Below, one piece after another: positions 39,516 to 57,838 of a DNA stretch of 64,000 nucleotides. The notes below the pieces were generated by a model. The model did not search any database and had not been told where the DNA came from. It saw only the letters and a program-made list of their open reading frames with translations. Source of the DNA: a virus (lineage: Duplodnaviria; Caudoviricetes); the IMG/VR virus record IMGVR_UViG_3300032225_001322, positions 64,001 to 128,000 of that record; one strand, written 5' to 3'. Position 1 is the first letter of the stretch. Every line of letters starts with the position of its first letter. Both the position numbers and the translations under genes were made by a program.

Positions 39516-39519
39516 TTAA

Positions 39520-40971
39520 TTAAAGTCCGTATGCTTGTTTATTTACGGGAATTCCGCTGGGATTCAATCCTAATTGACCAAAACTATTATTGCCCCACGA
39601 CCATAATGTGCCATTGCTTTGTATGGCTGTTGAATAGAGATTTCCAGCAGAAATTTTAGTCCATGTACTCAATGCACCCACTTGTACTGGACTTGATCTA
39701 TTAGTTGTATCACTTTGGCCTAATTGACCCCATACATTATATCCCCATGACCAAAGTGTGCCTGGAGTTTGTAAAGCAAGTATGCTATATCCACAAGCAA
39801 CTTGAGTCCATGTACTCAACGCACCCACTTGTACTGGACTAGATATTCTAACTATATTAGTATTAACACCTAATTGCCCATTTAGATTATTTCCCCATGT
39901 CCATAATGTTCCGTTACTTTGGATAGCTGCGGTAAAAGTATTTCCTGAAGAAATTCTAGACCACGTGCTTAGTGCTCCAATTTGTGCTGGACTACTTCTA
40001 TCTGTTATATCACCAAGACCCAACTGACTAGCATTGTTTCTACCCCATGCCCACAGGGTACCGTTGGACTGAATAGCCATAGTAAAATTATATCCGCAAG
40101 ATACTTGCGTCCATGTACTTACTGTGCCTGATTGTACTGGATTTGAAATAGCACTGAGTGTCGAAGTATTGATACCTAATTGTCCGTTGCTATTATTTCC
40201 CCACGACCACAACGTACCATCATTTTTTAAAGCAAAAGCAAAATAATTGCCGGCAGATATTCGAGTCCATGTACTCAGTGCGCCTATTTGAACTGGACTT
40301 AGAATATTTGTTCCAATTGAGCCAACACCTAATTGACCATAAGTGTTTCCACCCCATGTCCATAAACTACCATTACTAAGTAAAGCTAATGTTACACCTT
40401 GTCCCACAGTAAGTTGTGACCATCCCCATAATATACCATTAACTTGTACTGGACTTGATCTATTGGTTGTATTGCTTTGACCTAATTGTCCAAGATCATT
40501 AAGGCCCCACATCCATAAATTACTATTAGTGGGATTTTGAATAGCTCCAGTATTATAAGACCCAGTTGATACGGCAGTCCAGTTACTTGATGTTCCTACT
40601 TGTACTGGGCTTGATCTAGCAGTGACACCAACTTGCCAATCTGTAGTCTGTGGATAGTTTTCTGCCAAAAGAAAGTTTGCTCTTATTAAACTTTGAGCAT
40701 TGGCACGACTTTGATAAAATACTGCAGTAGGCCCAACACCAGTGATTGTAGTAGAGTCTTGATCAACTTGTATGCCTGGTAAAGATTGAGCATAGTTAAT
40801 AGCCCCATTTAAATTACCAACAGGATAGGTCTGCGTCAATAACTGTTGACCAAATACCACAGTCTTTCTATTAGTAACAGCCGCTTGGATGCCTTGATAG
40901 TTAGGATCATTACCTGGTATATATGTGCTGTCTAGATCAACGGCATTGGTTTGATAATTACTAGAGGTCAT
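39520..40971 (-). CDS. RCC1-repeat protein (7 canonical repeats plus divergent N-terminus)
   Basis: Seven LW(M/T/S/A)WG repeats. Confidence 0.9.
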   Translation of the reverse strand: MTSSNYQTNAVDLDSTYIPGNDPNYQGIQAAVTNRKTVVFGQQLLTQTYPVGNLNGAINYAQSLPGIQVDQDSTTITGVGPTAVFYQSRANAQSLIRANFLLAENYPQTTDWQVGVTARSSPVQVGTSSNWTAVSTGSYNTGAIQNPTNSNLWMWGLNDLGQLGQSNTTNRSSPVQVNGILWGWSQLTVGQGVTLALLSNGSLWTWGGNTYGQLGVGSIGTNILSPVQIGALSTWTRISAGNYFAFALKNDGTLWSWGNNSNGQLGINTSTLSAISNPVQSGTVSTWTQVSCGYNFTMAIQSNGTLWAWGRNNASQLGLGDITDRSSPAQIGALSTWSRISSGNTFTAAIQSNGTLWTWGNNLNGQLGVNTNIVRISSPVQVGALSTWTQVACGYSILALQTPGTLWSWGYNVWGQLGQSDTTNRSSPVQVGALSTWTKISAGNLYSTAIQSNGTLWSWGNNSFGQLGLNPSGIPVNKQAYGL

Positions 40972-43142
40972 TTAAATAATATTATAGAAGAGCCAGCTTT
41001 GGTTTCTACCTTTGTTGTAGTATTTATTGACCCAATCTGTACTGGGCTGTATTGATATGTGTTGGTATTGGCACTGATACCCAACTGACCATAGGTGTTG
41101 TTACCAAATCCATATACTGTGCTGTTCACGCTGACTAATAATGTGGTGTCTTGATTGGTAGCCACATTGTTCCAAAAATTACTGACAAATTTCTGTGTTG
41201 GGTATGTAAAGTTTGTGGTAGTGTTGGCACTGACTTTATTACCGACTCCGCCGCCCCACAAATTATTACTTCCGTCAACTAACCAAATGTCATAGTCGTC
41301 CATGGCGGCATTTTGAATACCAGTGGCATAGGTTATCTGTACTGGGCTTGATCTATTTGTCGTATCACTTAACCCTAGTTGGTATTGATTGTTTTTACCA
41401 AATACCCAAGCATTGTTGCTGTTGTCAATTAACATACTTCCGTAGTCAGCGGCCACAGCTCTTGACCAATTAGTGCCTGAACCAATTTGTGTTAATGATG
41501 AGTACGAACTAGTTGTAGTATTAAGTCCCAACTGCCCATAGCTATTATTGCCTATACTCCAAGCAGTACCGTTGGTCTGTACTCCAACGAAATGATATTG
41601 GCCAGTGTCATAACTTGTCCAAGCAATACTATTAGTTGTGTCTATAGTGGGAATATCTACAGTACTAGTCTGTACTAGAGTGTTATCCGCTGTTCGTCTA
41701 AAATAACTTTGACTGTTACTGGCCGCGACTTTATTATAGTTTGCTGTGTTAAACTGACTGGGATAATTGGTAAGTGAATATGCCGCTGGGTTATATTGTC
41801 CCAATTGGCCAAAACTATTTGATCCCCAGGCCCATAATGTGCCATTGTTTTGTATAGCCGAAACAAAATTCACGACTCCTGATATTTGAGTCCATGCGCT
41901 CAATGTGCCAACTTGAACCGGACTTGATATGATAAAAGTAGAAGTGTTAATACCTACTTGTCCGACATTGTTTAAACCCCAAGCCCATAGTGTGCCAGGG
42001 CTTTGTATAGCAAAAGCACCTTCGTATGAAGAAGTTACTTGGCTCCATGAGCTTAACGAACCTACTTGCGTAAGACTTGATCTATCTGTTAGATCACCAA
42101 GCCCTAGCTGTCCGCCTGCGTTACGACCGCATGACCATAGTGTGCCATTGCTTTGTAGGGCAAAAGTAGCATGAACACCAGCAGAAATTTTAGTCCAAGT
42201 AGTTAAAGCGCCTACTTGTACTGGACTAGAATAATTTGTTTGATTATTTTGTCCCAGTTGACCAAAACTGTTTAACCCCCAGGTCCATAGTGTGCCATTA
42301 CTTTGTAATGCCACTGAATGACCAAATCCAGGAAAAACTTGACTCCATGAACTAAGAGCGCCTACTTGTACAGGACTAGAATAATTAGTGCTAGTATTAA
42401 GGCCTAGTTGACCATAACTGTTACTGCCCCAAGACCATAGTGTGCCATTGCTTAGAATAGCTAGAGAGAAATAAGCGCCACCTGAAATAGTCACCCATGT
42501 ACTTAAAGCACCTATTTGTACTGGGCTTATGACATTACTTAATGTTGAAGTGTTTGTGCCAAGCTGACCAAAACTATTGTTGCCCCAAGCCCATAGTGTG
42601 CCTGGGCTTTGTAATGCCAACGTGTACTCGTAGCCCCCAGAAACACTAGTCCATGCGCTCAATGTGCCGACTTGAATTGGGCTAGAACGATTTACTATAT
42701 CACCGAGACCTAATTGACCAAATGAATTTAATCCCCAAGTCCACAATGTGTTATTATTTTTTATGGCCGCCATCCAACTATTACTGCTACTATCATTACT
42801 GAGTAGGCTAGTCCAAATACTCAGCCCACCTACTTGTACAGGACTGCTTCTACCGGTTGTGTCCGCTACCGCTTGACCAGCAAAAAATGGTTGATTATTC
42901 TGATTGACAAAAGCTAGCCCAAGGCCATTTCTAAGATATGCCGCATCAATCCAAGCAGGATAGGCTAATTGATTAGTTAATGCTACTGGACTAGAATATC
43001 CAGCGTTAAGAGTGTTAACGCCTAACTGGCCGTAGCTGTTGTTGCCAAATGCTTGGGCACTAGGAAAATTGGCCCAGCCGCTATAATTACTTATTTTAGC
43101 AAAGTTTGCGGTAGCATCTTGACTATCCTGGATAAACGGCAT
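40968..43142 (-). CDS. RCC1-repeat protein (7 canonical plus about 7 divergent repeats)
   Basis: Canonical repeats flanked by degenerate AQAFG/PFFAG and AWSIG/AWVFG/LWGGG/VYGFG blades. Confidence 0.9.
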   Translation of the reverse strand: MPFIQDSQDATANFAKISNYSGWANFPSAQAFGNNSYGQLGVNTLNAGYSSPVALTNQLAYPAWIDAAYLRNGLGLAFVNQNNQPFFAGQAVADTTGRSSPVQVGGLSIWTSLLSNDSSSNSWMAAIKNNNTLWTWGLNSFGQLGLGDIVNRSSPIQVGTLSAWTSVSGGYEYTLALQSPGTLWAWGNNSFGQLGTNTSTLSNVISPVQIGALSTWVTISGGAYFSLAILSNGTLWSWGSNSYGQLGLNTSTNYSSPVQVGALSSWSQVFPGFGHSVALQSNGTLWTWGLNSFGQLGQNNQTNYSSPVQVGALTTWTKISAGVHATFALQSNGTLWSCGRNAGGQLGLGDLTDRSSLTQVGSLSSWSQVTSSYEGAFAIQSPGTLWAWGLNNVGQVGINTSTFIISSPVQVGTLSAWTQISGVVNFVSAIQNNGTLWAWGSNSFGQLGQYNPAAYSLTNYPSQFNTANYNKVAASNSQSYFRRTADNTLVQTSTVDIPTIDTTNSIAWTSYDTGQYHFVGVQTNGTAWSIGNNSYGQLGLNTTTSSYSSLTQIGSGTNWSRAVAADYGSMLIDNSNNAWVFGKNNQYQLGLSDTTNRSSPVQITYATGIQNAAMDDYDIWLVDGSNNLWGGGVGNKVSANTTTNFTYPTQKFVSNFWNNVATNQDTTLLVSVNSTVYGFGNNTYGQLGISANTNTYQYSPVQIGSINTTTKVETKAGSSIILFK

Positions 43143-44929
43143 TACTTGTTCTCCAGTTTTTTAACTTGTTCAGACAGCGTTTTTACTGCCTCAACTAGTA
43201 TGCCAATCACTCCATTGTAGTTTAATGCCTTGCCGTTGTCTGAGTCTGTTACCAGTTGGGGCAAATATCGTTCGACATCCTGTGCTATGAGACCAGCCGA
43301 TTGTGCTCCGGTGTCGGTGAATTCAAATGTTACACCGCGTAGGTTTTCGATGATAGCCAATGCGTTGGCTATAATTTCAATATTTGATTTCTTTTCAGCA
43401 TCGGATGTAGTATTAAATACTGTAGAGCTTAGTGTACCGGTGCTGGGCACATAGTTTAATTTGGTACTACTAGTATTCACATTGGCAAATGACCCAGATG
43501 TTGTATTACCTAGTAATGGATAAAATGTATTAGCAGATGATAGTTGGTCCACAATAGTAATAGTGGGCGGTAAACCAGATAACTGACTACCATTACCAAA
43601 ATAATAACTAGCTGTGATGTTGCCATTAGCACTAAAAATATTGGCAAATATTACATTGGCGCCAGTAATATTACCGCCAGTACCTGTGCCTGTTATAAAA
43701 TTAACACCAGTAATATTACCAGTAGAACTTATGTTACCAGCATAGACATTACCTGTGCCAGAAAATATGCCGCCAGCGCCAATAGTTATTAACGCACCAG
43801 CGATAATATTGCCAGAACCAGAAATATTACCACCAGTACCCGAAGTGAATACATTGGCGCCTGTTACATTACCAGTGGTACTAAAACTCGATGTAGCAGA
43901 AAAATTACCTGTACTAATGTTGGCGCTGAATATATTACCGCTAGTGCTGAAGAGGTTAGCAGCAAGAAAAGTATTAGCCGAGATAACATTGGCACCAGTA
44001 ATATTACCGCCAGTTATTCCCACCGTAGTAAAATTATTACCTGTAATATTACCGCTGGCACTTAGATTGCCAGCAAAGATATTACCAGTGCCAGATAGTA
44101 TGCCGCCAGTACCTGTAGTAATTAATGCCCCAGCAATGATGTTACCGGTACCAGAAATATTGCCACCAGAACCTGTAGTTGATATTGAGTTACCAGCATA
44201 GATATTACCAGTGGCACTGATAACGCCAGTACCGCCTGTACTTATAAGTCCTATACCTGTTACATTACCAGCAACACTAATATTACCGGTCGATAAAAAA
44301 TTGCCAGCATAGATATTACCAGTTCCAGAAATTACTCCAGTACCACCTGTACTTGCGAATCCTAAACCTGTTACATTACCGCTGGCACTTATAGCACCAG
44401 TGACATTTAATCCTGTGGGAGTGAATACTGCTACATTACCTGTGCCGCTTACACCAACTGTTACATTGGCATTGGCTGTAGCTATGACTATGTTGCTTTG
44501 CCCATTGGCGATAGTAGTGGGCGTAGTGCTTAACCCAGTAAGTAATGCTCCGTTACCAATAAAATAATTACTGGTTGTGATATTGCCAGATACACTAAAA
44601 GTGCCAGTTGTCGCAATATTGCCAGCAGTGATAGTCCCGGTTACTGATTCATTACCGCTAATAATACTATTGTTACTATAGATATTACCGCTAGTAGATA
44701 TATTTCCACTAGTTAAAATATTACCGCTAACATTGCCGCCAATTATATTAGGAGCATAGATATTGCCTGCGGAAGAAATGTAACTAGTAGCAGTAATATA
44801 TCCATTGGCTGTAATATTAGCAAATGGTAATATTACTCTAGACCAAGCATTGCTAGCACTGGCATACTGATAAGTTATACCATTTATTGTAGTTTGTTGG
44901 CCGTTTGTTGGTGTGCTAGGGAATGACAT
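43142..44929 (-). CDS. Tail fibre with C-terminal intramolecular chaperone (Peptidase S74-like)
   Basis: TSDAEKKSNI...LRGVTF...GLIAQDVE..LPQLV...LNYNG.IGILVEAVK; GNI/GNV shaft repeats; MSFPSTPTNGQ N-terminal anchor-type motif. Confidence 0.88.
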   Translation of the reverse strand: MSFPSTPTNGQQTTINGITYQYASASNAWSRVILPFANITANGYITATSYISSAGNIYAPNIIGGNVSGNILTSGNISTSGNIYSNNSIISGNESVTGTITAGNIATTGTFSVSGNITTSNYFIGNGALLTGLSTTPTTIANGQSNIVIATANANVTVGVSGTGNVAVFTPTGLNVTGAISASGNVTGLGFASTGGTGVISGTGNIYAGNFLSTGNISVAGNVTGIGLISTGGTGVISATGNIYAGNSISTTGSGGNISGTGNIIAGALITTGTGGILSGTGNIFAGNLSASGNITGNNFTTVGITGGNITGANVISANTFLAANLFSTSGNIFSANISTGNFSATSSFSTTGNVTGANVFTSGTGGNISGSGNIIAGALITIGAGGIFSGTGNVYAGNISSTGNITGVNFITGTGTGGNITGANVIFANIFSANGNITASYYFGNGSQLSGLPPTITIVDQLSSANTFYPLLGNTTSGSFANVNTSSTKLNYVPSTGTLSSTVFNTTSDAEKKSNIEIIANALAIIENLRGVTFEFTDTGAQSAGLIAQDVERYLPQLVTDSDNGKALNYNGVIGILVEAVKTLSEQVKKLENK

Positions 44930-45038: not shown

Positions 45039-47918
45039 TTAAGACTGGTTCTCAGTCCAACTGAAACGAGCATTAACTGAATTTGTACCATTCAACGGCG
45101 TGGCACATACAGTTAAAATGTCAGGCCCGTCTGGATACAAATTAGTAGGGTTAGTTGGAACGTTGTATGAAGTACCGCCACTCAATATACTAGTTCCAAT
45201 ATCTCTAATCTGGTTCAACGGCTGTGATGTTGCGCTGTTCGGACTAGTAAAGAAGCTATATATAGTCTCGCCGCCAAATATAGTAGTATTCGCACCATGT
45301 AAACTCAATTGAGTTAAACTAGATCCACCAACTGGAGCAAATGTTCCACCACTCGGTACACCGTTCAATACCAAGTCGATACGGAACGAAGTGTTACCTG
45401 TTGTGAAAGCGTCAATCTGTACTGGCTGTACCTGCATACGAGTTATAATCTCTCTAACACCTAATATTCCAGTAACGCCACTATCAGTACTTGGTGCTAA
45501 ACGCATACTTAGTAGAGCACTACGCACATTACCTGCTTGATTGGTTAAGGTAGTTGCCATACCAGCACTGAATACATATTGGTTGTCATCAGATTGTCCA
45601 CCGTCGATGATTACACTAGTACCCCAGTGATTTAAGGTACTACTTGCCTGTGGGCTGTATAATTCAACTTTAATTGGAGCAGTTGCTGAATATGTAAATG
45701 TTTGTGCTGAAGCATTGCCGCCTGTCTGAGCACGACTAGTAATAGTAAATGTATTTCCGACTATAGCACTATATGAAATATATTCGATAGCGGCCGCAGT
45801 GGCTGCTGACTGAGTTATTACCACAGTTCCTGAACTTGGGAATCCTGATGTGCTAGCTACTGAAATACTAGCGCCAGTAGTGGCTGAGCTAGATAGTGTA
45901 GCTGCTAGTTGAGTTATTGGAGGTTGAGTATTAGTTTCATATCTACCAGGTTGGTTACCTGAACGCATGAAAGCCACTTGGTTTAAGTTATTGTTAGGTA
46001 CACGATGACAGTAGATAACTTCACCGCGATTATTTTTAAATCCAAATCGTATAGCGCCAGCACCATACCAGCTATAGTCCATGTAGAACATCTGCATCTT
46101 AGTCAAGTCCACATTAAATAAACTAGCACCTGTTCCGTTACATGGATCAATATTCCATGTACTTTGTGCGTACTTTGTATCAACTACTACTGATAAAAAA
46201 TCGCTGACAATGTTATTTGCGCCGCGATATTCGGGGTAGATATACATTGTTGTATTACTGGTAATTTGTTGTACAAGATAAGTCTGACCAGCAAGTACAA
46301 TATATTGCCCTGGTGTTACTTGATTACTAAAAGTAGTATTAGTTCCTGTTACTGTTTGACTGCCAGCGGTTACTGCAATAGTTCCAGAAGCATAAGTAGT
46401 AGCTGATCTCTTGACCGCATATAATGTTTGACCGTCATATTCAAAGAACATACCATTTTGATCACTGAACATACCAATACGATTCTTGGCACCATACCAG
46501 CTGTATGGATTGGCTGTTATTGTTGGAGATCCTACAGCTGGACTAGTAGCTGGAGCGGACAATGCTGTATATGTAAATGTAGTCACTGACGGAGCAGTAA
46601 CAACTGTGAAATTTCCATTATAAGCACTTAGTGTAGCGCCAGCAATAGTAACTACTGCGCCTGGATTTAATCCATGTGGGAATAGTGTGTTCACTGTGCA
46701 AGTAGTACCACTACTTGTAATGTTATTAACATAGATTATTGGTTTCATACTACTACCAGTTGAGAACTGAATTCCTTTACCAGCTTGGTAACGGAAATTG
46801 CGTCGTGTCTGACGAATAGTTTGATAACCATGTGAAGCAGTTTGATTACTAAATGCTATTCCACCAAGCTGTGGACGACTTTCTACATAACCTAGTTGAC
46901 GCGGATACAATGTGACGTTTGCTGCAGTAGTTATAGTTCCGCCAGTAGCAGTGGAAGTATATGTAAATGTATTACTAGTTGGAGTCGTTGATACAATCCA
47001 AGATCCATTAACTGATCCACCAGTTGCTCCTGTGGTACCAGTGACATAGATGCCAGATCCAACTCGTAATCCGTGATCGTTAGTTGTTGTTACTGTAACA
47101 ACAGCATTGGCGGCCACTGTCATATTACCGCCGGCACTACCTGCTATAGGAATAGCCGAACCACTAAACCAATAACCAGGATAGATATAAGTTTTATTAG
47201 GATTGAATAGTGTAGTAGCCGGAGTACTAGTTGTAATATATTGGAAACTGGTATTTGCTACCACGTTGTTTGCCAACCAGAAACCGTCGGCATTACCCAT
47301 GTCCAATGTACCTTGAATAAAGATTGGTGTGCCGTTGGCAATACCAGTGGTATTATTTAGACTAACGGTTACAAGATTACCTGAAGCCGCCACATTGGAT
47401 AATGTATATGATGATCCCTGGGAATTACCACCATTGGCCCAGAAGCTTAAAGTAGTTGCTGTATTACTAATAGGACTTGCTACATTATAAAACATACTAG
47501 GACGATTGTTTAATAAACAAAGATTTTCCCATTTACCTGGTTGTGTACCATATTCAAAGTCAGTATCAATCAAACCCTGCGGAGTAGAAACACGCAATTT
47601 ATCCACCGGATCGCGCATTGTTTCATTTGGAGTGATTAAATCATAAGATTCTTCGTATAGGATAGAGATTTTGTCAGTTGAGTTAAGGCCTGAGCAGTTA
47701 TAACTTAATACAACGTTACAGGTCTCCAAACCAGTGCTTGTGGACACTGAGTTGGTAATATTTGCTCCTAGACTAGGATCGCTAAAATTATAAAGTACTA
47801 CGCCTGTTGTTACATCTGTGATCAACAATAGTTGCTCTGGGCGAAGATTTTTTCCATTTACAAATACTGTATTAGTACTTGGGGTAAATGTGTAGTTTTC
47901 TATAATTACGTGTCGCAT
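45039..47918 (-). CDS. Virion structural protein with repeated small beta domains
   Basis: DPVDKLRVSTPQ.LIDTDFEYG.Q..KWE N-terminal motif; repeated HGL..G..(I/V).(I/V).G....NG modules; DYSWYGAG. Confidence 0.7.
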   Translation of the reverse strand: MRHVIIENYTFTPSTNTVFVNGKNLRPEQLLLITDVTTGVVLYNFSDPSLGANITNSVSTSTGLETCNVVLSYNCSGLNSTDKISILYEESYDLITPNETMRDPVDKLRVSTPQGLIDTDFEYGTQPGKWENLCLLNNRPSMFYNVASPISNTATTLSFWANGGNSQGSSYTLSNVAASGNLVTVSLNNTTGIANGTPIFIQGTLDMGNADGFWLANNVVANTSFQYITTSTPATTLFNPNKTYIYPGYWFSGSAIPIAGSAGGNMTVAANAVVTVTTTNDHGLRVGSGIYVTGTTGATGGSVNGSWIVSTTPTSNTFTYTSTATGGTITTAANVTLYPRQLGYVESRPQLGGIAFSNQTASHGYQTIRQTRRNFRYQAGKGIQFSTGSSMKPIIYVNNITSSGTTCTVNTLFPHGLNPGAVVTIAGATLSAYNGNFTVVTAPSVTTFTYTALSAPATSPAVGSPTITANPYSWYGAKNRIGMFSDQNGMFFEYDGQTLYAVKRSATTYASGTIAVTAGSQTVTGTNTTFSNQVTPGQYIVLAGQTYLVQQITSNTTMYIYPEYRGANNIVSDFLSVVVDTKYAQSTWNIDPCNGTGASLFNVDLTKMQMFYMDYSWYGAGAIRFGFKNNRGEVIYCHRVPNNNLNQVAFMRSGNQPGRYETNTQPPITQLAATLSSSATTGASISVASTSGFPSSGTVVITQSAATAAAIEYISYSAIVGNTFTITSRAQTGGNASAQTFTYSATAPIKVELYSPQASSTLNHWGTSVIIDGGQSDDNQYVFSAGMATTLTNQAGNVRSALLSMRLAPSTDSGVTGILGVREIITRMQVQPVQIDAFTTGNTSFRIDLVLNGVPSGGTFAPVGGSSLTQLSLHGANTTIFGGETIYSFFTSPNSATSQPLNQIRDIGTSILSGGTSYNVPTNPTNLYPDGPDILTVCATPLNGTNSVNARFSWTENQS

Positions 47919-47927
47919 CTTTTTTCC

Positions 47928-50900
47928 TTAATCTGAAATCGCTATAGTAGTTGCTGAATATGGGTATCTCAACAGCTGCGAATCTGTAGCTGTATTTACC
48001 TGAGTTATGTTCACTTGAGTGCCTTTGGCAGGAGGTCTGTAAAGAACTACGGAATTGGCTGTAGCACTATAACCCAAAGTTGTTACTTTGAACCCTTTAA
48101 AACTGACATCCACACACCAGAAAGGCCATACCCAAGTTTTAACAAATGGGGTCTGTATTGCCCCGTTTAGTGCTACCTGTAACTGTTTACTGTTAGCGAT
48201 ACCAGCAACATTGGCCTGATTATTTTTTAACGCAAATACACCTGTTTTGCCATTAGTTTGAGTTGAAACATCGTTAAATACCACTGGGCCTGTAAACAAC
48301 GGTTGCGTTGTTACTGTAGCTCCGAAATCATCTATCCAATAATAGTTTGTACCGTCAAAAGTAAATCTATATTGTATATTAGTGCTGGTATCATACCAAA
48401 AATCACCAGTAGTAGGATTTGTTGGAGCACTAGCACTAGATGTAGATCGAACGCCGCCGGCTACAATATTACCAGTAGCAGTGATATTGCCGGTTATAGC
48501 AATATTAGTTGGTGTAAATACTGCTACATTGCCTACTCCGCTTACTGAAACAGTAACATTGGCATTTTGACTAGCAATGGATATATTGCTTGAGCCATTA
48601 CTAAAAGTACCTACATTTGCTAAAACACCGACTAATTGGCTACCGTTACCAATAAAATAATTACCAAGTACATTGCCCGTGGCCGTTACATAACCACTCG
48701 TAAGGATATTTCCGCCGATAATATTACCTGGAGCAGATATGCCACCACCCGATCCACTGTATATAAAGGCATTACCATATACATTGCCCGTTACGCTTAA
48801 ACCAGTTGGAGACACTACGACTACATTTCCGACTCCACTTACATCCATTGTTATATTAGCATTGGCTCCGGCTATGTTTACATTACTTTGACCGCTGTAG
48901 ATAATATTACTAGCGCCGCCACCGTTTCCGCCAGAGATGCCAGTTAAGAACGCTCCGTTACCATAGATATAATTACCAGTGATGTTACCAGTGGCACTTA
49001 CTACACCAGTTACATTAACTCCAGTATTAGAAAAAGTAGCAACAATATTAGCTGTGTTACTGCCATTAGCAATAATTCTTACAACGCCATTGCGTTCATT
49101 ACTACCAAGAATTAAATTACCGCCACCACCGTTGGCATTGCCTTGAGAGTACAAATATGTATCATTGGGTGCTACACTAGTGCCTAGACTATTGTAAGGA
49201 TTTACATTGGAATAATTATTTCCAGCAACACCAAAGTCACCAAAGTACGCTACGTCATTACCGTTGTTAGCTGTAACAATTATTTCTGTGGTCGCCGCAG
49301 TACCGCTATTAATATTTTGGAAGTTAACCTGTGAATATGAATTAGCATTGCCAGCAAACTGAACAACAACATTTGAACCTAATGGTGTAAATCCAGGTAC
49401 ACCTGCGTATAACGCACTATTACCTGAAACACTATTACCGTAGAATATACCAGCACCATTGGCTGTAATATTACTTGTACTTTGGAATGTTCCAATTACA
49501 GTTAAATTATTGCTGAAGTACCCGTTATAGCCATTGATATTACCTAGGCCTGTTTGGACAATATTGGCGCTAGTTGTAATATTACCAGCGGCACTTACTA
49601 AGCCAGCTGTTGTGACATTGCCAGCGATAGCATTACCTGTAGCACTTACTAAACCAGCTGTTGTGACATTGCCAGCGATAGCATTACCTGTAGCACTTAC
49701 TAAACCAGCTGTTAAAATATTACCTACTTGAGCATTGCCAGTAGCACTGATTAATCCGCTAGTTAAAATATTGCCGCCGGTTACATTGCCGTTGGCAGCG
49801 ATAGTACCTAATACACTTAAACCAGTTGGGGTAAATACCGCTATATTTCCTACAGTACTAACTGAAATTGTTACATTGGCGTTTGCTGATCCAATATTTA
49901 GATTACTATTTCCATTTACAACATTAGATACACTAGTGATAATACCAGTCAACTGACTACCGTTACCAATAAAATAATTACCAGTTACATTGCCTGTAGC
50001 ACTAACAACACCACCGGTTAATAAATTACCGCCAATAATGTTACCAACAGAACTTACTGTGGAAGCAGCGTTAAATGTGTTGGCCGAAATAACATTGGCG
50101 CCAGATAAGTTGCCGCCTGAACCAGTTCCGGCAATAACAGCACCGCTAGCATAGACATTGCCAGCGGCACTTACTTGTCCACTGGTTAAGATATTTCCGC
50201 CTGTAATATTACCTGAGCCAGATACTAGTCCGCCAGTAACTAAATTACCAACAGTGGCTGTGCCTGTAGAACTAATTAGCCCAGCTGTTGTAATATTACC
50301 GCCAGTTATATTGCTAGTAGCACTAATTAATCCGCCAGTTAATACATTACCACCAGCACTGATATTATTACTTGTTATAATATTGCCGCCAGATACATTA
50401 CCTGTGGCAATTACATTGCTGCCGGTTGATAAATTACCAACACTACTAATACCTAAACTAGCTACCCAAACATTGGATGCTGTATTATACAACAATGTTG
50501 CGTATTCTGCTCCAAGAGGACCAACACCAATACCGCCGTTATTAGCCGCAGTAGCATTGGCCGCGTTATTGGCCATGTTAATTTGTAAATCGTTTGTAGT
50601 AACAATGTTTGAATTAATTGTAGTTGTAGTACCTTGAACTGTCAAGTTACCTGTAATAACCACGTTACCATCTGTGCCGCCTGATCCATTTGGATCAATA
50701 GTTAATGTCGGTCCAGCGCCAACAATTAAATTTCCACTTAATACAATACCACCAACTGAAATTGTACCGTTAGATGTTACATTTCCTATAGTAGCATTAC
50801 CAGAGATGCTGGCGGTAGTAGCTAGTAAATTACCAGAAATATTATTACCAGTTACATTGCCAGTGGCGCTTATTAAACCTGACGTTAAGATATTTCCAGC

Positions 50901-52001
50901 AATAGCATTACCAGTAGCACTTACATTACCTGAAGTTAATAAATTGCCACCGGTTACAGTTCCAACAATGGTAGCATATCCACTGGCTATAATATTGCCG
51001 CCAGAAACTATATTACCATAAGCACTTACAACACCACTTTGATTAATTACTGTAGTGGTACCAGGAGTACCAAAAATACCAGCTGGAGCATAGACATTTC
51101 CAACAGATGAAATAAATCCGCTAGATAATAAATTGCCGCCTGAAATATTAGCAGCTGATGTGATATTTCCACTAGCACTTACTGTAACAGCGTTAAATGT
51201 ATTAGCTGAAATAATGTTGGCACCAGTAATATTACCACCAGTACCGCCGCCACTAACAATATTGCCGCCATATACATTGCCACTAGCACTTACTAGGCCA
51301 CTAGTTAAAATATTACCGCCAGTTACATTACTTGTAACACTTAATCCAGTTGGAGTGAATACTGCTACATTACCTACTGTGCTTACCGATACAGTAACAT
51401 TGGCATTGGCACTAGCTATGGCAACGTTACTATTGCCATTGAATATTGTATTACTTGATGTGGTAACGCCAGTTAATAGTGCGCCGTTACCAAGAATATA
51501 ATTACCTTGAACATTTCCTGTAGCAGTTACATTACCCGCATATACATTGCCTGTGGCGCTGAATATATTAGCAGATACGAGATTAGCACCAGTGATGTTA
51601 CCTCCAGAACCTCCTGCGCTTATAATGGAGTTAGCATATACATTACCACTAGCACTAACAAATCCAGCAGTCAATACATTTCCGCCAGTAATATTACCGT
51701 TGGCCGCTACAGTACCTAGTACACTTAATCCAGTTGGTGTTACTACTACAACATTGCCTATTGTGCTAACAGAAAGAGTGATATTGGCATTAGCTGCCGC
51801 GATACTAACATTACTATTTCCATTAAGAATCGCTGATCCAGCACTTGTTGTAATGCCGGTTAATAATGAGCCATTACCAATAAAATAATTGCCGGTACCG
51901 GCATAGACATTACCTACGGCTGAAACATAAGTTCCTGCTGTTAAGAATGTATTGACATTGGCATTACCATATATCGTTGTGCCACTTAGTAACTTAGCCA
52001 T
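47928..52001 (-). CDS. Long tail fibre-like protein with Gly-Asn repeats
   Basis: About 17-aa SATGN(V/I)xxGN(I/V)LTxG repeats; MAKLLSGT N-terminus; APTNPTTGDFWYD motif near the C-terminus. Confidence 0.8.
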   Translation of the reverse strand: MAKLLSGTTIYGNANVNTFLTAGTYVSAVGNVYAGTGNYFIGNGSLLTGITTSAGSAILNGNSNVSIAAANANITLSVSTIGNVVVVTPTGLSVLGTVAANGNITGGNVLTAGFVSASGNVYANSIISAGGSGGNITGANLVSANIFSATGNVYAGNVTATGNVQGNYILGNGALLTGVTTSSNTIFNGNSNVAIASANANVTVSVSTVGNVAVFTPTGLSVTSNVTGGNILTSGLVSASGNVYGGNIVSGGGTGGNITGANIISANTFNAVTVSASGNITSAANISGGNLLSSGFISSVGNVYAPAGIFGTPGTTTVINQSGVVSAYGNIVSGGNIIASGYATIVGTVTGGNLLTSGNVSATGNAIAGNILTSGLISATGNVTGNNISGNLLATTASISGNATIGNVTSNGTISVGGIVLSGNLIVGAGPTLTIDPNGSGGTDGNVVITGNLTVQGTTTTINSNIVTTNDLQINMANNAANATAANNGGIGVGPLGAEYATLLYNTASNVWVASLGISSVGNLSTGSNVIATGNVSGGNIITSNNISAGGNVLTGGLISATSNITGGNITTAGLISSTGTATVGNLVTGGLVSGSGNITGGNILTSGQVSAAGNVYASGAVIAGTGSGGNLSGANVISANTFNAASTVSSVGNIIGGNLLTGGVVSATGNVTGNYFIGNGSQLTGIITSVSNVVNGNSNLNIGSANANVTISVSTVGNIAVFTPTGLSVLGTIAANGNVTGGNILTSGLISATGNAQVGNILTAGLVSATGNAIAGNVTTAGLVSATGNAIAGNVTTAGLVSAAGNITTSANIVQTGLGNINGYNGYFSNNLTVIGTFQSTSNITANGAGIFYGNSVSGNSALYAGVPGFTPLGSNVVVQFAGNANSYSQVNFQNINSGTAATTEIIVTANNGNDVAYFGDFGVAGNNYSNVNPYNSLGTSVAPNDTYLYSQGNANGGGGNLILGSNERNGVVRIIANGSNTANIVATFSNTGVNVTGVVSATGNITGNYIYGNGAFLTGISGGNGGGASNIIYSGQSNVNIAGANANITMDVSGVGNVVVVSPTGLSVTGNVYGNAFIYSGSGGGISAPGNIIGGNILTSGYVTATGNVLGNYFIGNGSQLVGVLANVGTFSNGSSNISIASQNANVTVSVSGVGNVAVFTPTNIAITGNITATGNIVAGGVRSTSSASAPTNPTTGDFWYDTSTNIQYRFTFDGTNYYWIDDFGATVTTQPLFTGPVVFNDVSTQTNGKTGVFALKNNQANVAGIANSKQLQVALNGAIQTPFVKTWVWPFWCVDVSFKGFKVTTLGYSATANSVVLYRPPAKGTQVNITQVNTATDSQLLRYPYSATTIAISD
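49591..49713 (-). repeat. Near-perfect 51-nt tandem repeat (17-aa unit AGLVSATGNAIAGNVTT)
   Basis: GCACTTACTAA(G/A)CCAGCTGTTGTGACATTGCCAGCGATAGCATTACCTGTA, two full copies plus a partial. Confidence 0.85.
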
Positions 52002-52011
52002 AGTACCCTAT

Positions 52012-52233
52012 TTAACTTATGCCAGTGACTTCGTCAAATATCCCTTGTACTAACATAGTTCCAGTATTAGTAATGCGTAAAGGAACACTTGGGCCTGTGA
52101 CTTCGTCGAACAGACCTGCGTAAACCGCCGATTGAGCGATGGATGCGTTACTGTAAGTAACCTCGTCAAATTGAATAGTGTTGGCTATTAGTAAATTACC
52201 TGTGTTCAAAAGTCTTGCAGCTAGAAATGCCAT
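52012..52233 (-). CDS. Small protein with three FDEVT repeats (putative fibre adaptor)
   Basis: QFDEVT, LFDEVT, IFDEVT; AGGAG Shine-Dalgarno; paralogous to both termini of 56298-57167. Confidence 0.75.
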   Translation of the reverse strand: MAFLAARLLNTGNLLIANTIQFDEVTYSNASIAQSAVYAGLFDEVTGPSVPLRITNTGTMLVQGIFDEVTGIS

Positions 52234-52245
52234 TAGTTTCTCCTA

Positions 52246-55200
52246 TTAACCAAATGTAAAGTCAATACTTACCAAGCTAGAATTATAAGTTACATGTCCG
52301 CCGGGACCAGCCGCGTTACTATTGGCTAGATTCAAATACGCAGTAGTTCCAATATTACCAGTTGCGCTTACCTGTCCTGCTGTTATTAAATTACCAGCAG
52401 TTGTATTACCTGTAGCACTTATTAGTCCAGCCGTTAAAATGTTGCCATGTATAGCATTACCAGTACTTGACATCAACCCAGCTGTTAAGATATTTCCAGC
52501 GGTAGCATTACCTGTAGCTGATATTAATCCAGCTGTAGTGACATTGCCACCTGTTACATTGCCATTAGCCGCTATAGTACCTAATACGCTTAACCCAGTT
52601 GGTGTAAATACCGCTACGTTACCTACGGTACTAACACTAATAGTAACATTGGCATTTGCCGCGGCAATGTTTAAATTACTGCCGCCATTTACTACATTGG
52701 ATACTGATGTAATAATACCAGTTAACTGACTACCATTACCTAAAATATAATTACCTGTAACATTACCTGTAGCACTAACAAAGCCACTTGTTAAAATATT
52801 TCCTGCCTGAATATTGCCTGAAGCAGATATGCCTCCGCCACCGCTACCAGCTAATATAAATGCGTTACCGTAAATATTGCCGCCAGCACTTAATATGCCA
52901 GCTGTAGTGATATTGCCACCAGCAATGTTAGCTACCGATGTAATGTTGCCTGTAGCACTTACTGTGCCACCTGTTGCTAAATTGCCTACTGTAGCTGTAC
53001 CAGTAGCACTAATTAATCCAGCTGTTGTAAGATTACCTGCTATAGCGTTACCAGTAGCACTAATTAATCCAGCTGTTGTAACATTACCTGCTATAGCGTT
53101 ACCGGTAGCTGATATTAATCCAACTGTAGTAATATTACCTGCTGTAGCGTTACCGGTAGCACTAATTAATCCAGCTGTTGTAACATTACCACCACTAACA
53201 TTGCCGTTAGCGGCTATAGTACCTAGTACACTTAACCCGGTTGGTGTTACTACTACAACATTGCCTACTGTACTAACAGAAAGGGTAATATTAGCATTGG
53301 CTGTCGCAATATTTAAATTACTGCCGCCATTTACTACATTGGATACTGATGTAATAATACCAGTTAACTGACTACCGTTACCTAAAATATAATTACCAGT
53401 AATATTGCCTGTAGCACTTACTAGTCCAATAGTAGTGACATTGCCACCAATAACATTGCCTGTAGCTGTTACATAGCCGCTGGTTAATAAATTGCCACCA
53501 ATAATATTGCCTGAACCAGATAATGTGCCACCAGTGCCAGTAGATATGAATGTGTTAGCATATACATTACCTGTCGCTGTGATTAATCCAGCTGTTACAA
53601 TATTACCTGCTGTAGCATTGCCAGTAGCTGATATTAATCCAACTGTAGTAATATTACCTGCTGTCGCGTTACCGGTAGCACTGATCAATCCAGCTGTTAA
53701 AATGTTTCCACCAGTTATACTATTAGCACTTGTAATTGTACCAGTAGCACTAATTGTGCCACCTGTTGCTAAATTACCACCAGTAATAGTAGTTGCTGAT
53801 GTAATTGTGCTTGTGGCACTAATTAATCCAGCTGTTAAGATGTTTCCACCAATAATATTGCCAGTACTACTATTAGTACCAGCATTGATTATATTACCAG
53901 AATAAACATTACCAGTCGCACTGATTAATCCGCCAGTTGTGACATTACCACCTGTTACATTGCCTGTAGCATTAACGGATGTTCCAGCTTGCAGTGCGCC
54001 AGTAACACTTAAACTTGTACCAGTAGCGGCACCAATATTTGGTGTTGTTAAATTAGCACTAGCTTTGACACTAATATTGCCGCCGCCATCAAATGCTGTT
54101 GTAACATTGTCAACTCTAGCATTAATTACTGTGCCAGCAATACTAATACCGTTGCCACTTGTATATGTTTGACTACTACTAAATTGAGCAAAAGTAATAT
54201 TACTTGTGCCGAATGTAATTGTGCCTGTTGGGCCATTAACTATATAAGCACTACCAGCATTGACATTACCGTTGGTTACGAAGAAATAATCGTTAAGACT
54301 TAACTGAGTAACACTATCTGGACCATATTCATCTGTGTCAGTTGAACGAACAATCGCTGTAGAATTAGACCAAGTATATATACCGTTAAACGCAGCATTG
54401 CCTTCGTTTTTAACTAAGATACGAGTACCTACGGTTTGAACATTACCGGTATCAATTAAATTGAACGAGCCTGTAGTTTGAATATACGCACCAATACCAT
54501 TACCAATACCGTTAGGTTGATTATATGTAACAGTACCGCCTGTGGTTGTAGCTAAGTTTGCTGTGGTAGCCACGTATACCGGTGTATGATAGGCGATTCC
54601 TGTTGACACCATAGTGTCAACATAATATTTGGTAGCCGCGTCACTATTTGCTACTGGGTTTAATGCTAAATTATTAATGTAAGTAGCATTTCCAGAAGGT
54701 AATACAATGTTACCAGTACCACCTGGGAATAAATTAATGTGGGCATTGCCGCCTGTGGCAACAGTTACGCCACTAGCACCATAAATGTTAGCTGTGTTAA
54801 CAATACCACTAGTTGTAATATTTCCAGTTGCTGATATCAATCCACCAGTTAAAACATTGCCAGCATTAACATTACTTGTTGCTGTGATAAATCCAGTGAT
54901 TGTTGTGTTGGCTGCTGCTAATGCGCCAGTAGCACTCAACTGCCCAGCAGTTAAAATATTACCGCCAGTTACATTACCAGTGGCTGTAACTACGCCAGCT
55001 GTTGTAACATTGCCAGATGTAGCATTGCCTGTGGCACTTACTAGACCAGCTGTTAAAACATTTCCAACTTGAGCATTACCAGTAGCACTCATTGTGCCAC
55101 CAGTAGCTAAATTGCCACCAGTAATTGTAGTTGCTGATGTAATTGTTGCGGTAGCCGAAATTAATCCAGCTGTTAAAATATTTCCGCCAATGATATTACC

Positions 55201-56283
55201 AACACTACTACTACTGCCAGCATTAATTAAATTACCAACATAGGCATTACCTGTTACACTTACTAATCCAGCTGTCGTAATGTTGCCTGCTGTAGCATTA
55301 CCAGTAGCGCTTACTAGTCCACCAGTTACAATATTTCCACCAGAAATATTAGCTGCTGACGTTATAGTTGATGTCGCTGAAATTAAACCAGCTGTTAAAA
55401 TGTTACCGCCAGTGATATTACCAGCACTACTGCTACTACCTGCGTTGATTATATTACCAGCGTAAACATTACCTGTTGCTGTAATCAAGCCAGCAGTACT
55501 AATATTACCAGCTATAGCATTACCGGTAGCACTTAATGTACCACCAGTAGCTAAATTTCCGCCATTAATTGTATTTGCTGATGTGATAGTGCCTGTAGAA
55601 CTAATCAAACCTGGAGTTAATAAATTGCCGCCAGCTATGTTGCCAGTGACACTTAATAGATTTGTTGCTGCGTTAAATGTGAATGCTGAACTAGCACCCA
55701 AATTACCGTTATTATTATATTGTACTTGTGTGTTCGAGCCTGAAGCTGTAATGTTACCGCTGATACTACCAGCAAATGTACCAACGAAATAGTTACCGTA
55801 TACATTACCTGCGGCGCTTACTATACCAGCTGTAAGTATATTGCCACCAGTTACATTGCCTGTAGCAGTTACTAGTCCAGTTGTTTGTACATTTCCGCTG
55901 ATAATATTACCAATTACACTTACTGTAGTGTCAAAAGAAATATTACCATAGATGTTACCAGTAACGCTAAGATTTTGTGCGTAGACATTACCAGAGGCGC
56001 TTACCAGTCCACCTGTTAAAATATTGGCGCCGCTAATATTTGCCGCTGATGTTATTGTGGAAGTCGCAGAGATTAAACCAGAAGTTAACAAATTACCAAC
56101 AGTAGCATTACCGGTTGCGCTAAACAAGCCAGCTGTTAAAATGTTGCCAGCCTGGGCATTACCTGTGGCACTAATTAAACCAGTTGTTGTGACATTGCCA
56201 CCAATAACATTACCAGTGATACTGGCGAATGTCTGAATATTAATATTACCGTATACCGAAGTACCTGAAAGCAGCTTTGCCAT
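52246..56283 (-). CDS. Long tail fibre-like protein with Gly-Asn repeats
   Basis: MAKLLSGT N-terminus; DAATKYYVD and RILVKNE...NGIY domain; C-terminal YNSSLVSIDFTFG. Confidence 0.8.
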   Translation of the reverse strand: MAKLLSGTSVYGNINIQTFASITGNVIGGNVTTTGLISATGNAQAGNILTAGLFSATGNATVGNLLTSGLISATSTITSAANISGANILTGGLVSASGNVYAQNLSVTGNIYGNISFDTTVSVIGNIISGNVQTTGLVTATGNVTGGNILTAGIVSAAGNVYGNYFVGTFAGSISGNITASGSNTQVQYNNNGNLGASSAFTFNAATNLLSVTGNIAGGNLLTPGLISSTGTITSANTINGGNLATGGTLSATGNAIAGNISTAGLITATGNVYAGNIINAGSSSSAGNITGGNILTAGLISATSTITSAANISGGNIVTGGLVSATGNATAGNITTAGLVSVTGNAYVGNLINAGSSSSVGNIIGGNILTAGLISATATITSATTITGGNLATGGTMSATGNAQVGNVLTAGLVSATGNATSGNVTTAGVVTATGNVTGGNILTAGQLSATGALAAANTTITGFITATSNVNAGNVLTGGLISATGNITTSGIVNTANIYGASGVTVATGGNAHINLFPGGTGNIVLPSGNATYINNLALNPVANSDAATKYYVDTMVSTGIAYHTPVYVATTANLATTTGGTVTYNQPNGIGNGIGAYIQTTGSFNLIDTGNVQTVGTRILVKNEGNAAFNGIYTWSNSTAIVRSTDTDEYGPDSVTQLSLNDYFFVTNGNVNAGSAYIVNGPTGTITFGTSNITFAQFSSSQTYTSGNGISIAGTVINARVDNVTTAFDGGGNISVKASANLTTPNIGAATGTSLSVTGALQAGTSVNATGNVTGGNVTTGGLISATGNVYSGNIINAGTNSSTGNIIGGNILTAGLISATSTITSATTITGGNLATGGTISATGTITSANSITGGNILTAGLISATGNATAGNITTVGLISATGNATAGNIVTAGLITATGNVYANTFISTGTGGTLSGSGNIIGGNLLTSGYVTATGNVIGGNVTTIGLVSATGNITGNYILGNGSQLTGIITSVSNVVNGGSNLNIATANANITLSVSTVGNVVVVTPTGLSVLGTIAANGNVSGGNVTTAGLISATGNATAGNITTVGLISATGNAIAGNVTTAGLISATGNAIAGNLTTAGLISATGTATVGNLATGGTVSATGNITSVANIAGGNITTAGILSAGGNIYGNAFILAGSGGGGISASGNIQAGNILTSGFVSATGNVTGNYILGNGSQLTGIITSVSNVVNGGSNLNIAAANANVTISVSTVGNVAVFTPTGLSVLGTIAANGNVTGGNVTTAGLISATGNATAGNILTAGLMSSTGNAIHGNILTAGLISATGNTTAGNLITAGQVSATGNIGTTAYLNLANSNAAGPGGHVTYNSSLVSIDFTFG

Positions 56284-56297
56284 TTGTTATTATCCTT

Positions 56298-57167
56298 TTA
56301 AACTATACCTGTTTCTTCATCAAAATACCCAGAAACCTGTAAAGTTCCTGTGCTTAATTGTCTCTGTACTGTATTTACCGTAAATGGCTTAGAACCGCTA
56401 GCGCCAGGGGTTCCTGCCACCTGAACTTTGAAATTATTTGGACTAGAATCAATGAGTAGCCCGCCATTGTCGCTCATACATAGCAATAATTGTGTGTTGG
56501 TTATGGGTACTAACGCTGCATAGGGCGGAGTAAAATTAGTAGTATATAATGCTGTGCCTACTACTATTCTTAGATTACTTACATAACTGGTAGATCCGTT
56601 ATTACCGATACCGTTGTTATCGTTAAATCCGTTGACCACCCAATTATCAGATGTACTCATTGGACTGCTGGTCATATATCCACCATCGCCAATACCATTA
56701 ATGTAGATTGCCCTAAGTCCAGTGGCAGTGCAACTTACGGCCACATGATACCAAGCATTAGCCGCATAAGTTGAGCCTGTAGTTATAGTCACTGGATAGC
56801 TGGTTCCGTCGCCTTGTTTGATTGTAAATTTATCGGCGGCAGTATAACCCCAATCTAAAGCAAAGCTCTGTCCATATTGTGTGCCGTTGCCAATACTAAA
56901 AATTGCGCCGGATGCCTGTGGGTATACCCAAGTTTCAAATGTCCACGCTGTGCCGCTAGCGCCAATATTAAAAACTGTACTAGTACCTGATAGATAATTT
57001 CCAGCGCCAGCAAAAGTAATACTGCCAGCAGATAAAAATACTTCGTCAAATAATTTAGCATAAATTGCTTCAGGAGCTATACTAATCCAGGTTTTTGTGA
57101 TTTCATCAAAATATGCATTGGTTAGTAGTATTCCGTCGGCGGTAAGTCTAGAAGTTAAAGTAGGCAT
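56298..57167 (-). CDS. LamG/ConA-like lectin domain inserted in an FDE-repeat scaffold
   Basis: WTFETWVY, WYHVAV, IYING, SNLRIV.GTALYT.NFTPP (LamG); FDEIT, FDEVF and FDEET flanks. Confidence 0.82.
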   Translation of the reverse strand: MPTLTSRLTADGILLTNAYFDEITKTWISIAPEAIYAKLFDEVFLSAGSITFAGAGNYLSGTSTVFNIGASGTAWTFETWVYPQASGAIFSIGNGTQYGQSFALDWGYTAADKFTIKQGDGTSYPVTITTGSTYAANAWYHVAVSCTATGLRAIYINGIGDGGYMTSSPMSTSDNWVVNGFNDNNGIGNNGSTSYVSNLRIVVGTALYTTNFTPPYAALVPITNTQLLLCMSDNGGLLIDSSPNNFKVQVAGTPGASGSKPFTVNTVQRQLSTGTLQVSGYFDEETGIV

Positions 57168-57169
57168 AA

Positions 57170-57838
57170 TTAATTAAAAATAGTGTCCAAACTTCCAGTC
57201 GATGAATTGTATATTTGGTATACTGCTACGTTTCCGCTATTTGCCCAATTTACAGTATTATTAACAATTACGTTATTGCTGGTAACATTGCCTGTAAAAC
57301 TTGGACTTTGTACAACATCAAATGTAATTGTATCAGCGGCATTATTTCCAGTGATAGAAATATTATTACCGCTAATAAATGATACTTGAGTACTTACACC
57401 ATTGGCTACAACATTAGAGCTACCTACAACATTAATAATACTGAAAGAATTTCCAGTATTTTGTAAGAATATTAATCCTGTAACACCTATATCAATAGGA
57501 TCATCTGTAACTAATTTCCAAGACGTATCAGCATACTCGGTACCTTCGGTAACCATGACAATCATACCAGCATTAATTTCGCCAGTAGTGTTGCTGTCAT
57601 TAGTTCTAATCCAAGTGCCGTTAGATCCCGTACCTGCTACTGATACATAGTACAGTCCGTTTTGACTAGCAGTAGCTTGACCAGCTACTAAGACTCTGTC
57701 ATTAGTATTGAGACTGACTCCGTCGACTATTTTAGGAGCGCCACCTGATAAAGTGACATTAGCTAGCGAAATTACTCGCGTGGCTTGTTTGTAATCAATA
57801 TCTGATATTTGTTCTGCGCGGATTCGTGTTAGGCCCAT
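57170..57838 (-). CDS. Short fibre-related protein
   Basis: DYKQATRV...VDGVSL..NDRVLV.GQ...QNGLY fibre-associated domain; C-terminal YNSSTGSLDTIFN; CTAAATA at 57861-57867. Confidence 0.75.
   Translation of the reverse strand: MGLTRIRAEQISDIDYKQATRVISLANVTLSGGAPKIVDGVSLNTNDRVLVAGQATASQNGLYYVSVAGTGSNGTWIRTNDSNTTGEINAGMIVMVTEGTEYADTSWKLVTDDPIDIGVTGLIFLQNTGNSFSIINVVGSSNVVANGVSTQVSFISGNNISITGNNAADTITFDVVQSPSFTGNVTSNNVIVNNTVNWANSGNVAVYQIYNSSTGSLDTIFN

Follow-up and report, generated by a model that had tools for sequence, protein, structure and literature searches.

Five adjacent genes on the minus strand of a 64,000-nucleotide (nt) stretch of viral DNA (the window; bases 64001-128000 of the 151,910-bp IMG/VR virus record IMGVR_UViG_3300032225_001322) appear to encode one segmented fibre, in which each junction would be made by a small connector with three repeats of an F-D-E motif. 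We put the probability of this reading at roughly 0.6; it includes contact between connector and fibres, a 3:1:3 stoichiometry, trimeric fibres, and a connector that is part of the virion. From its first part to its last, the fibre would run P0001, connector 1 (P0002), P0003, connector 2 (P0004), and P0005. Each junction would consist of the last ~14 residues of the proximal segment (the tail), an all-beta, three-repeat connector of ~70 amino acids (aa), and the first ~14 residues of the distal segment (the head). Because CheckV rates the 151,910-bp record as only 43% complete, the source is probably a jumbo phage. The genes and their terminal tags are as follows.

57170-57838, minus strand: P0001, 222 aa, putative chain starter; ends ...YNSSTGSLDTIFN, with the tail tag present and the head tag absent
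57173-57211, minus strand: tail tag 1, the last 13 codons of P0001 (...Y-N-S-S-T-G-S-L-D-T-I-F-N; tail logo from 73 triads)
56298-57167, minus strand: P0002, 289 aa, candidate connector 1; FDE motifs at residues 20, 40, and 282
52246-56283, minus strand: P0003, 1345 aa, putative middle fibre segment with GN-rich repeats; starts MAKLLSGT and ends ...YNSSLVSIDFTFG
56242-56283, minus strand: head tag of P0003 (MAKLLSGT start)
52249-52287, minus strand: tail tag 2, the C-terminal tag at the end of P0003
52012-52233, minus strand: P0004, 73 aa, candidate connector 2; three FDE repeats and nothing else
47928-52001, minus strand: P0005, 1357 aa, putative terminal fibre segment; starts MAKLLSGT, with the tail tag absent
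51960-52001, minus strand: head tag of P0005 (MAKLLSGT start)

The original prediction, made from the letters of the window, had described these five open reading frames (ORFs) with their termini and had seen in them the same triad (tail, FDE protein, head) at two consecutive junctions. All five ORFs are present on the minus strand, and the record as a whole bears out the triad: its 693 ORFs of at least 40 aa include exactly two heads, two tails (...S-[LI]-D-x-x-F-x-stop), and two proteins with two or more FDE motifs, all of them confined to the two consecutive triads. The gaps between the five genes are, in order, 2, 14, 12, and 10 nt. P0002 consists of FDE repeats 1 and 2 (residues 1-45), a Laminin_G_3/concanavalin A-like lectin domain at residues 71-183 (PF13385; 42.5 bits against a curated Pfam cut-off of 27.6, E 9.8e-11), and repeat 3 (residues ~265-289). 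It aligns to P0004 across residues 1-43 and 269-288, so that P0002 can be described as a bare module into which a lectin domain has been inserted. The two connectors are paralogues, and so are P0003 and P0005 (46% identity across 712 aa), which fits the further proposal that such fibres could grow by duplication of a two-gene cassette.

As had been anticipated, the order of the three motifs is conserved in other viral contigs. We fetched 32 IMG/VR contigs by means of an FDE profile, and in all 32 every FDE gene has a tail upstream and a head downstream, mostly twice per contig. Tails in the IMG/VR loci take the form ...N-x(4-5)-S-[LIF]-[DE]-x-x-F-x-stop and heads the form M-A-[KLN]-L-x-x-G-T-x-[IV]-Y-G. 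After removal of duplicates, all loci together gave 73 complete, non-identical triads; given this recurrence in other viral contigs, the order is far beyond chance. For a selection that is independent of the connector, we searched IMG/VR by a degenerate DNA pattern that covers only the head, and at least 84 matches were listed in 80 loci. Among the matches listed, 84 of 84 are ORF starts, and an FDE gene lies immediately upstream of the head in about 55 of 80 informative cases, the remainder being mostly cut by the edge of the locus. The head-selected contigs listed are therefore mostly FDE-preceded, and to that extent the motifs do not occur independently of one another; ten contigs in which this part of the expectation did not hold are taken up below.

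The only cultured carrier found is Synechococcus phage S-SRM01, which has one triad, at gp331-gp333, and is a true member of the same system. Here, gp331 (annotated as a baseplate wedge subunit) ends with the tail tag, gp332 (hypothetical protein) starts with the FDE module (profile E 2.2e-7), and gp333 (baseplate wedge subunit) starts with a variant of the head. S-SRM01 differs from the window in its single junction, a degenerate middle repeat (F-S-E), cargo that lies C-terminal to the module, and a head without the I-Y-G part. Megablast of the cluster region against GenBank phages gave no match, tblastn against the same phages, with two other FDE proteins as queries, returned LamG parts only or nothing, and a scan of 185,579 prokaryote genomes with module profile A1 yielded no relatives.

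The tags are distributed over proteins in a way that gives the chain a polarity. Among 51 complete tail-bearing proteins, 36 have no head (111-1,871 aa, with other starts) and 15 have both head and tail (574-1,691 aa); homologues of P0001 on other contigs are also starters with a tail only. A tail is absent from most head-bearing proteins (60 of 72). Those without it are 90-2,253 aa long, some only 90-230 aa, and many are too small to be independent fibres. Starters with a tail only, middle segments with both tags, and terminators with a head only fit a linear chain, a pattern that is not predicted if the FDE protein is a cap or a chaperone, two alternatives that we discuss below.

The tags are also set apart from the proteins that bear them by their conservation. 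The head consensus over the first ~14 residues is M-A-K-L-x-S-G-T-R-I-Y-G, and the tail consensus over the last ~14 residues is Y-x-x-Y-N-x-x-T-x-S-L-D-[TF]-x-F-x-stop. Mean pairwise identity among head proteins is 71% in residues 1-14 versus 21% in residues 15-60, and among tail proteins it is 50% in the last 14 residues versus 18% in the preceding stretch. K3 and R9 of the head were left unspecified in the DNA search pattern, yet they are 76-85% conserved, and the head's third codon positions are almost unconstrained (mean entropy 1.27 bits versus 0.53-0.70). Since third positions vary while the unspecified K3 and R9 stay conserved, the conservation of the head is at the peptide level. This speaks against a reading of the conserved termini as nucleic-acid signals, either for translational coupling or as recombination hot spots that shuffle fibre cassettes, with the FDE gene as a passenger. 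Genes that lie 2-14 nt apart and mosaic fibre bodies with conserved ends would suit such signals, but the FDE gene encodes a confidently folded, widely conserved protein, and we regard this explanation as very improbable. Altogether, the fixed order, the chain polarity, and termini that are far more conserved than the bodies lend comparative support to the idea of the original prediction that the FDE protein is a joint between fibre segments, the contact itself being inferred. Each comparative test with the power to refute the joint gave a result in its favour.

Column-by-column covariation was judged too weak with ~50 non-independent triads, and we computed correlations between similarity matrices instead. 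The correlation with the connector is rho 0.59 for tails and 0.47 for heads, and the correlation with their own bodies is 0.45 and 0.37, respectively; this is weak evidence, as the comparison of bodies was made without gaps and is noisy. Within a genome, the tails of the two junctions differ consistently (D-T-I-F versus D-F-T-F), and the connectors differ too (~49% identity). Because the two heads are nearly the same while tails and connectors differ, segment order is probably set on the tail side.

The connector represents a widespread family that is new to annotation. P0004 has 23 close relatives in metagenomes (66-84 aa, one 44-aa fragment among them), and a module profile search of 1.84 billion representatives returned 339 clusters at E <= 0.001. 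The module is ~70 aa long and has its FDE motifs at fixed offsets of ~19, 39, and 65. Each repeat closes with F-D-E-V-T, the three repeats are mutually homologous (hhalign 98% for R1/R3 and 92% for each other pair), and exactly three FDE motifs are present in 148 of 172 family members. The module has no match in Pfam, in PHROG, or in PDB sequences, where a search with the module profile gave a single chance match (E 1.8).

The module occurs alone, at the N-terminus of ~300-aa proteins, at the extreme C-terminus of 600-1,450-aa proteins, or split by an insert between repeats 1 and 2 or between repeats 2 and 3. Where cargo could be identified, it is Laminin_G_3 (in P0002 and also in P0046, P0050, P0054, P0058, P0086, and P0111) or a glycine-rich domain; some cargo is beta-helix-like, and some is up to ~1,400 aa long. 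None of the 172 members carries a head or a tail, i.e., the module is never fused to a flanking fibre, as expected if a single connector serves three fibre chains. Four family members of 1,000-1,450 aa (P0060, P0062, P0072, and P0155) start M-A-T-Y-Y-W-V-G-G-T-G-x-W, have no Pfam match, and end in an FDE module that takes up the final 70 residues; at fibre joints, such proteins would form side arms of very large size.

The small size of the bare form (73 aa) and the position of the FDE gene, immediately downstream of a fibre gene with a conserved C-terminal tag, are also what one would see in a non-structural assembly chaperone that acts on the C-terminal end of the fibre encoded upstream and does not enter the virion, like Tfa or gp38-type proteins. 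T2 gp38 and Mu/P2 Tfa are small, are encoded directly downstream of a fibre gene, and bind the C-terminal end of the fibre, as FDE proteins would. These proteins end a fibre, however, whereas here a head-tagged segment comes next in nearly every case. Lectin domains and cargo of up to ~1,400 aa are unexpected for a chaperone, and the connectors have no Pfam or PHROG match to tail-fibre assembly families (Tfa, gp38, or Caudo_TAP): P0004 has no match at all, and the PHROG matches of P0002 are to LamG-containing structural PHROGs only. A chaperone would also leave the conserved head on the next gene unexplained, and the terminal fibre has no such gene after it. We therefore hold this alternative to be quite improbable.

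A single-chain AlphaFold2 model of the module, based on 84 diverse sequences, is all-beta, with a predicted local distance difference test score (pLDDT) of 91.9 and a predicted template modelling score (pTM) of 0.76. Seven short strands were called, two to three per repeat. An AlphaFold2 fold of P0004 with an 18-sequence alignment had a pLDDT of 49.8; the partner-dependent fold that this value suggested was rejected, as the 84-sequence alignment gave 91.9. Neither Foldseek against the PDB nor VIA-align, run on 48,161 chains, found a neighbour of the module model, and nothing usable came from the ESM Atlas. The sole match in BFVD was an uncharacterised 74-aa homologue.

On the segmented-fibre reading, three equivalent repeats in a single chain would give the connector a pseudo-threefold surface, so that one copy could dock onto both neighbouring trimers, as gp35 joins gp34 and gp36 in T4. 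The connector would take up the three tail peptides of one trimer on one side and the three head peptides of the next on the other, and each repeat might use its acidic D-E pair to engage the conserved K3 and R9 of a single head chain. The loops between repeats and both ends of the module would stay free, which would allow the connector to carry cargo mounted on its side, such as the LamG lectin in P0002.

The T4 knee is among the closest known parallels to this arrangement. There, the gp35 kneecap, a monomer, connects the trimer of gp34 with the distal rod of gp36 and gp37 (PMC3004832), and this monomer between trimers matches the three-repeat, single-chain logic proposed here for the FDE connector. 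The gene order in T4 is gp34, gp35, gp36, that is, fibre, connector, fibre, and the connector genes in the window also sit between a proximal fibre gene and the gene of a distal partner. A 2026 preprint reports that the "tower-like" fibre-joining domain of gp35 combines residues 1-21 with residues 324-372 and that an ILEI-like and a CBM-like domain separate the two stretches (bioRxiv 10.64898/2026.03.06.709160). At ~70 aa split by inserts, this domain equals the FDE module of P0002 in size and is divided in the same way, a match at the level of topology only.

For the head, the likeness to T4 extends to sequence. The head pattern M-A-x-L-x-x-G-[ST] has one match on the two strands of the T4 genome, at the start codon of gene 36 (none for a reversed-pattern control), and the pattern is retained in 118 of 120 gp36 homologues. 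The N-terminus of T4 gp36 (M-A-D-L-K-x-G-S-T-x-G-G) shares M-A-x-L-x-x-G-[ST]-x-x-x-G with the heads here, and hhalign places 72 heads against 25 gp36 N-termini in register from Met1, with a probability of 74-92% (P 7e-7 to 3e-5) versus 0.3% for the reversed control. Judging from these alignments, the head is probably homologous to the N-terminus of gp36; P0003 and P0005 have no match to the gp36 family (PF03903) at E <= 0.1.

The connector appears to be analogous to gp35 and is possibly a very remote relative, while sequence comparison does not support its membership in the gp35 family. The module profile scores 0.4-4.3% probability against the tower columns of 21 gp35 homologues (P ~0.01, at the terminal F-[DR]-E-V only), and it finds nothing in the T4 genome. 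The gp35 homologues carry PF15711; Pfam finds Laminin_G_3 only on P0002 and nothing on P0004, with no ILEI/PANDER-like or CBM-like domain. A likeness to the gp34 tower may still exist despite the null fold searches, because a one-chain pseudo-trimer could not match the single chains of a trimeric fibre. In contrast to T4 gp35, the cargo here is LamG or absent, the joint is used twice in series, and a bare 73-aa form exists; the fibre bodies, too, with their GN-rich repeats, are unrelated to those of T4. We tested whether the module is homologous to gp35, and the tail to the C-terminus of gp34; neither similarity was significant, and we claim no homology in either case. The analogy of role with gp35 that was drawn in the original prediction is strengthened by the gp36-type head and the split topology.

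Several points weigh against the segmented-fibre reading. The contact between connector and fibre rests on inference, the computed folds being those of a single chain, and since the bare module folds alone, there is no need to assume a fold that depends on a partner. Much of the co-occurrence would also follow from gene adjacency and from inheritance of the cassette as a unit. Over their first 12 residues, the window's two heads hardly differ, which means that segment order cannot be specified by the head alone. Comparison of the module (profile A1) with T4 gp35 by hhalign gave no significant similarity (probability 0.3%), nor did that of the tail with the gp34 C-terminus, and no virion proteomics was found for any carrier. 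Two loci (L027 and L028) have an FDE-cargo gene without an adjacent head gene. In ten of the listed head-selected contigs (about one in eight), the protein just upstream of the head is phrog_5838-like instead of an FDE protein. These proteins are ~1,015 aa long, end ...S-W-T-E-A-Q-A, and are homologues of the product of window 45039-47918; in three of the contigs, a tail-tagged gene and a variant FDE-like gene come before the phrog_5838-like gene in turn.

Some of these points would favour an alternative in which the FDE module sits on the upstream fibre's C-terminal tip as no more than a cap or anchor, mounting a lectin or other adhesin there. The head-bearing fibre would then attach elsewhere, e.g., to the baseplate, and gene adjacency would reflect the clustering of fibre genes. 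There is a precedent in T2-type phages, where gp38 sits on the gp37 tip. The identified cargo includes a typical binding module (Laminin_G_3), the similarity matrices tie the tail to the connector most strongly (rho 0.59), the FDE-cargo proteins of L027 and L028 are without a head gene directly after them, and a head can also follow a phrog_5838-like protein. What a cap leaves unexplained is the near-invariable adjacency of FDE gene and head in 73 triads, along with a last fibre that has neither tail nor cap, a first protein that has no head, and head-only proteins of 90-230 aa. It also gives no reason why the head should coincide with the N-terminal motif of gp36, which in T4 is the kneecap's partner. 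We consider a cap unlikely and retain the segmented fibre, joined by connectors, as the preferred reading.

The window has a phrog_5838-like gene of its own (45039-47918, minus strand), which lies directly after the terminal fibre P0005 and encodes a virion protein of 959 aa that ends ...F-S-W-T-E-N-Q-S. Proteins of this type may be nodes in the same chains, with a built-in socket.

The N-terminal domain of P0001 has PHROG matches to tail-fibre and head-decoration proteins, the C-terminal region of P0005 has a weak PHROG match to a virion protein, and neighbouring genes have PHROG matches to tail-fibre and baseplate families; by the annotation of these neighbours, the cluster would belong to the tail module. 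Four large RCC1-repeat proteins (PHROG "regulator of chromosome condensation") are encoded directly downstream of the fibre cluster (32125-43142, minus strand), and S-SRM01 likewise has RCC1-repeat proteins beside its fibre genes. P0003 and P0004 share a reading frame (window 52012-52290, minus strand), with one stop and four codons between them, and read-through of the P0003 stop would fuse the tail tag to connector P0004. Promoter and terminator scans were at background level only. The Gp23 capsid family had no match in this fragment, a negative that carries no information, as control genomes gave no match either.

Further terminal motifs resemble attachment tags. A fibre with an S74-type chaperone-like C-terminus (43142-44929, minus strand) begins M-S-F-P-S-T-P-T-N-G-Q..., the same type of N-terminus as in tail-only starters elsewhere (M-A-F-P-x-S-P-x-x-G-Q), and this M-[SA]-F-P type looks like a second, different attachment tag. 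Outside the window, a 666-aa ORF (record 132082-134082, minus strand) starts M-S-I-N-T-T-K-L-L-S-G-R, and S-SRM01 gp331 (L003:8330-8989) starts M-S-K-F-L-S-G-R; neither of these head-like K-[LF]-L-S-G-R motifs has an FDE gene before it. A 487-aa tail-fibre/baseplate-like protein (record 134439-135902, minus strand) ends ...P-Y-I-L-A-I-S-G-D, its S-SRM01 counterpart gp329 (L003:6136-7995) ends ...P-F-I-L-A-L-G-G-D, and P0005 (window 47928-47950) ends ...T-I-A-I-S-D; these shared endings may be another conserved C-terminal tag. Some tail-only starters (L030, L036, L138, and others) begin M-A-N-T-I-L-Q-I-K-R-T-T-V-A-G-R-Q-P, which resembles the K-R-S-x-x-A-G-x-x-P motif at the N-termini of S-SRM01 gp329 and T4 gp37; in T4, this end of gp37 is bound by gp36 (PMC3004832).

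A broader idea, which we hold tentatively and think somewhat less probable than its converse, is that the triad of tail, connector, and head is a general plug-and-socket standard of aquatic myophages, in which three beta repeats in a single chain mimic a trimer seen in cross-section, with the T4 knee as one diverged instance. If so, any tail-tagged segment would couple to any head-tagged one, and a lectin or a 1,000-aa side arm could be mounted at the joint. The tail variants D-T-x-F and D-F-x-F, with their cognate connectors, would set the order of segments. The middle segment, having both head and tail, might then add more than once and so give fibres of variable length, which is speculation.

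To our knowledge, the assembly of long phage fibres from several gene products is understood in detail only for T4. The junction described here is short and portable, with a 70-aa domain between two peptides of ~14 residues, and it is conserved across at least 339 protein clusters of uncultured phages. It would explain many unannotated small ORFs between giant fibre genes, would make the order of fibre segments readable from sequence alone, and, by way of the gp36-type head common to both, would connect the T4 knee with cyanophage-type systems. Because cultured S-SRM01 carries the system, the model is directly testable. For the phages themselves, such a junction would be a natural route by which distal tips may be exchanged, or binding domains added, without altering the rest of the fibre.

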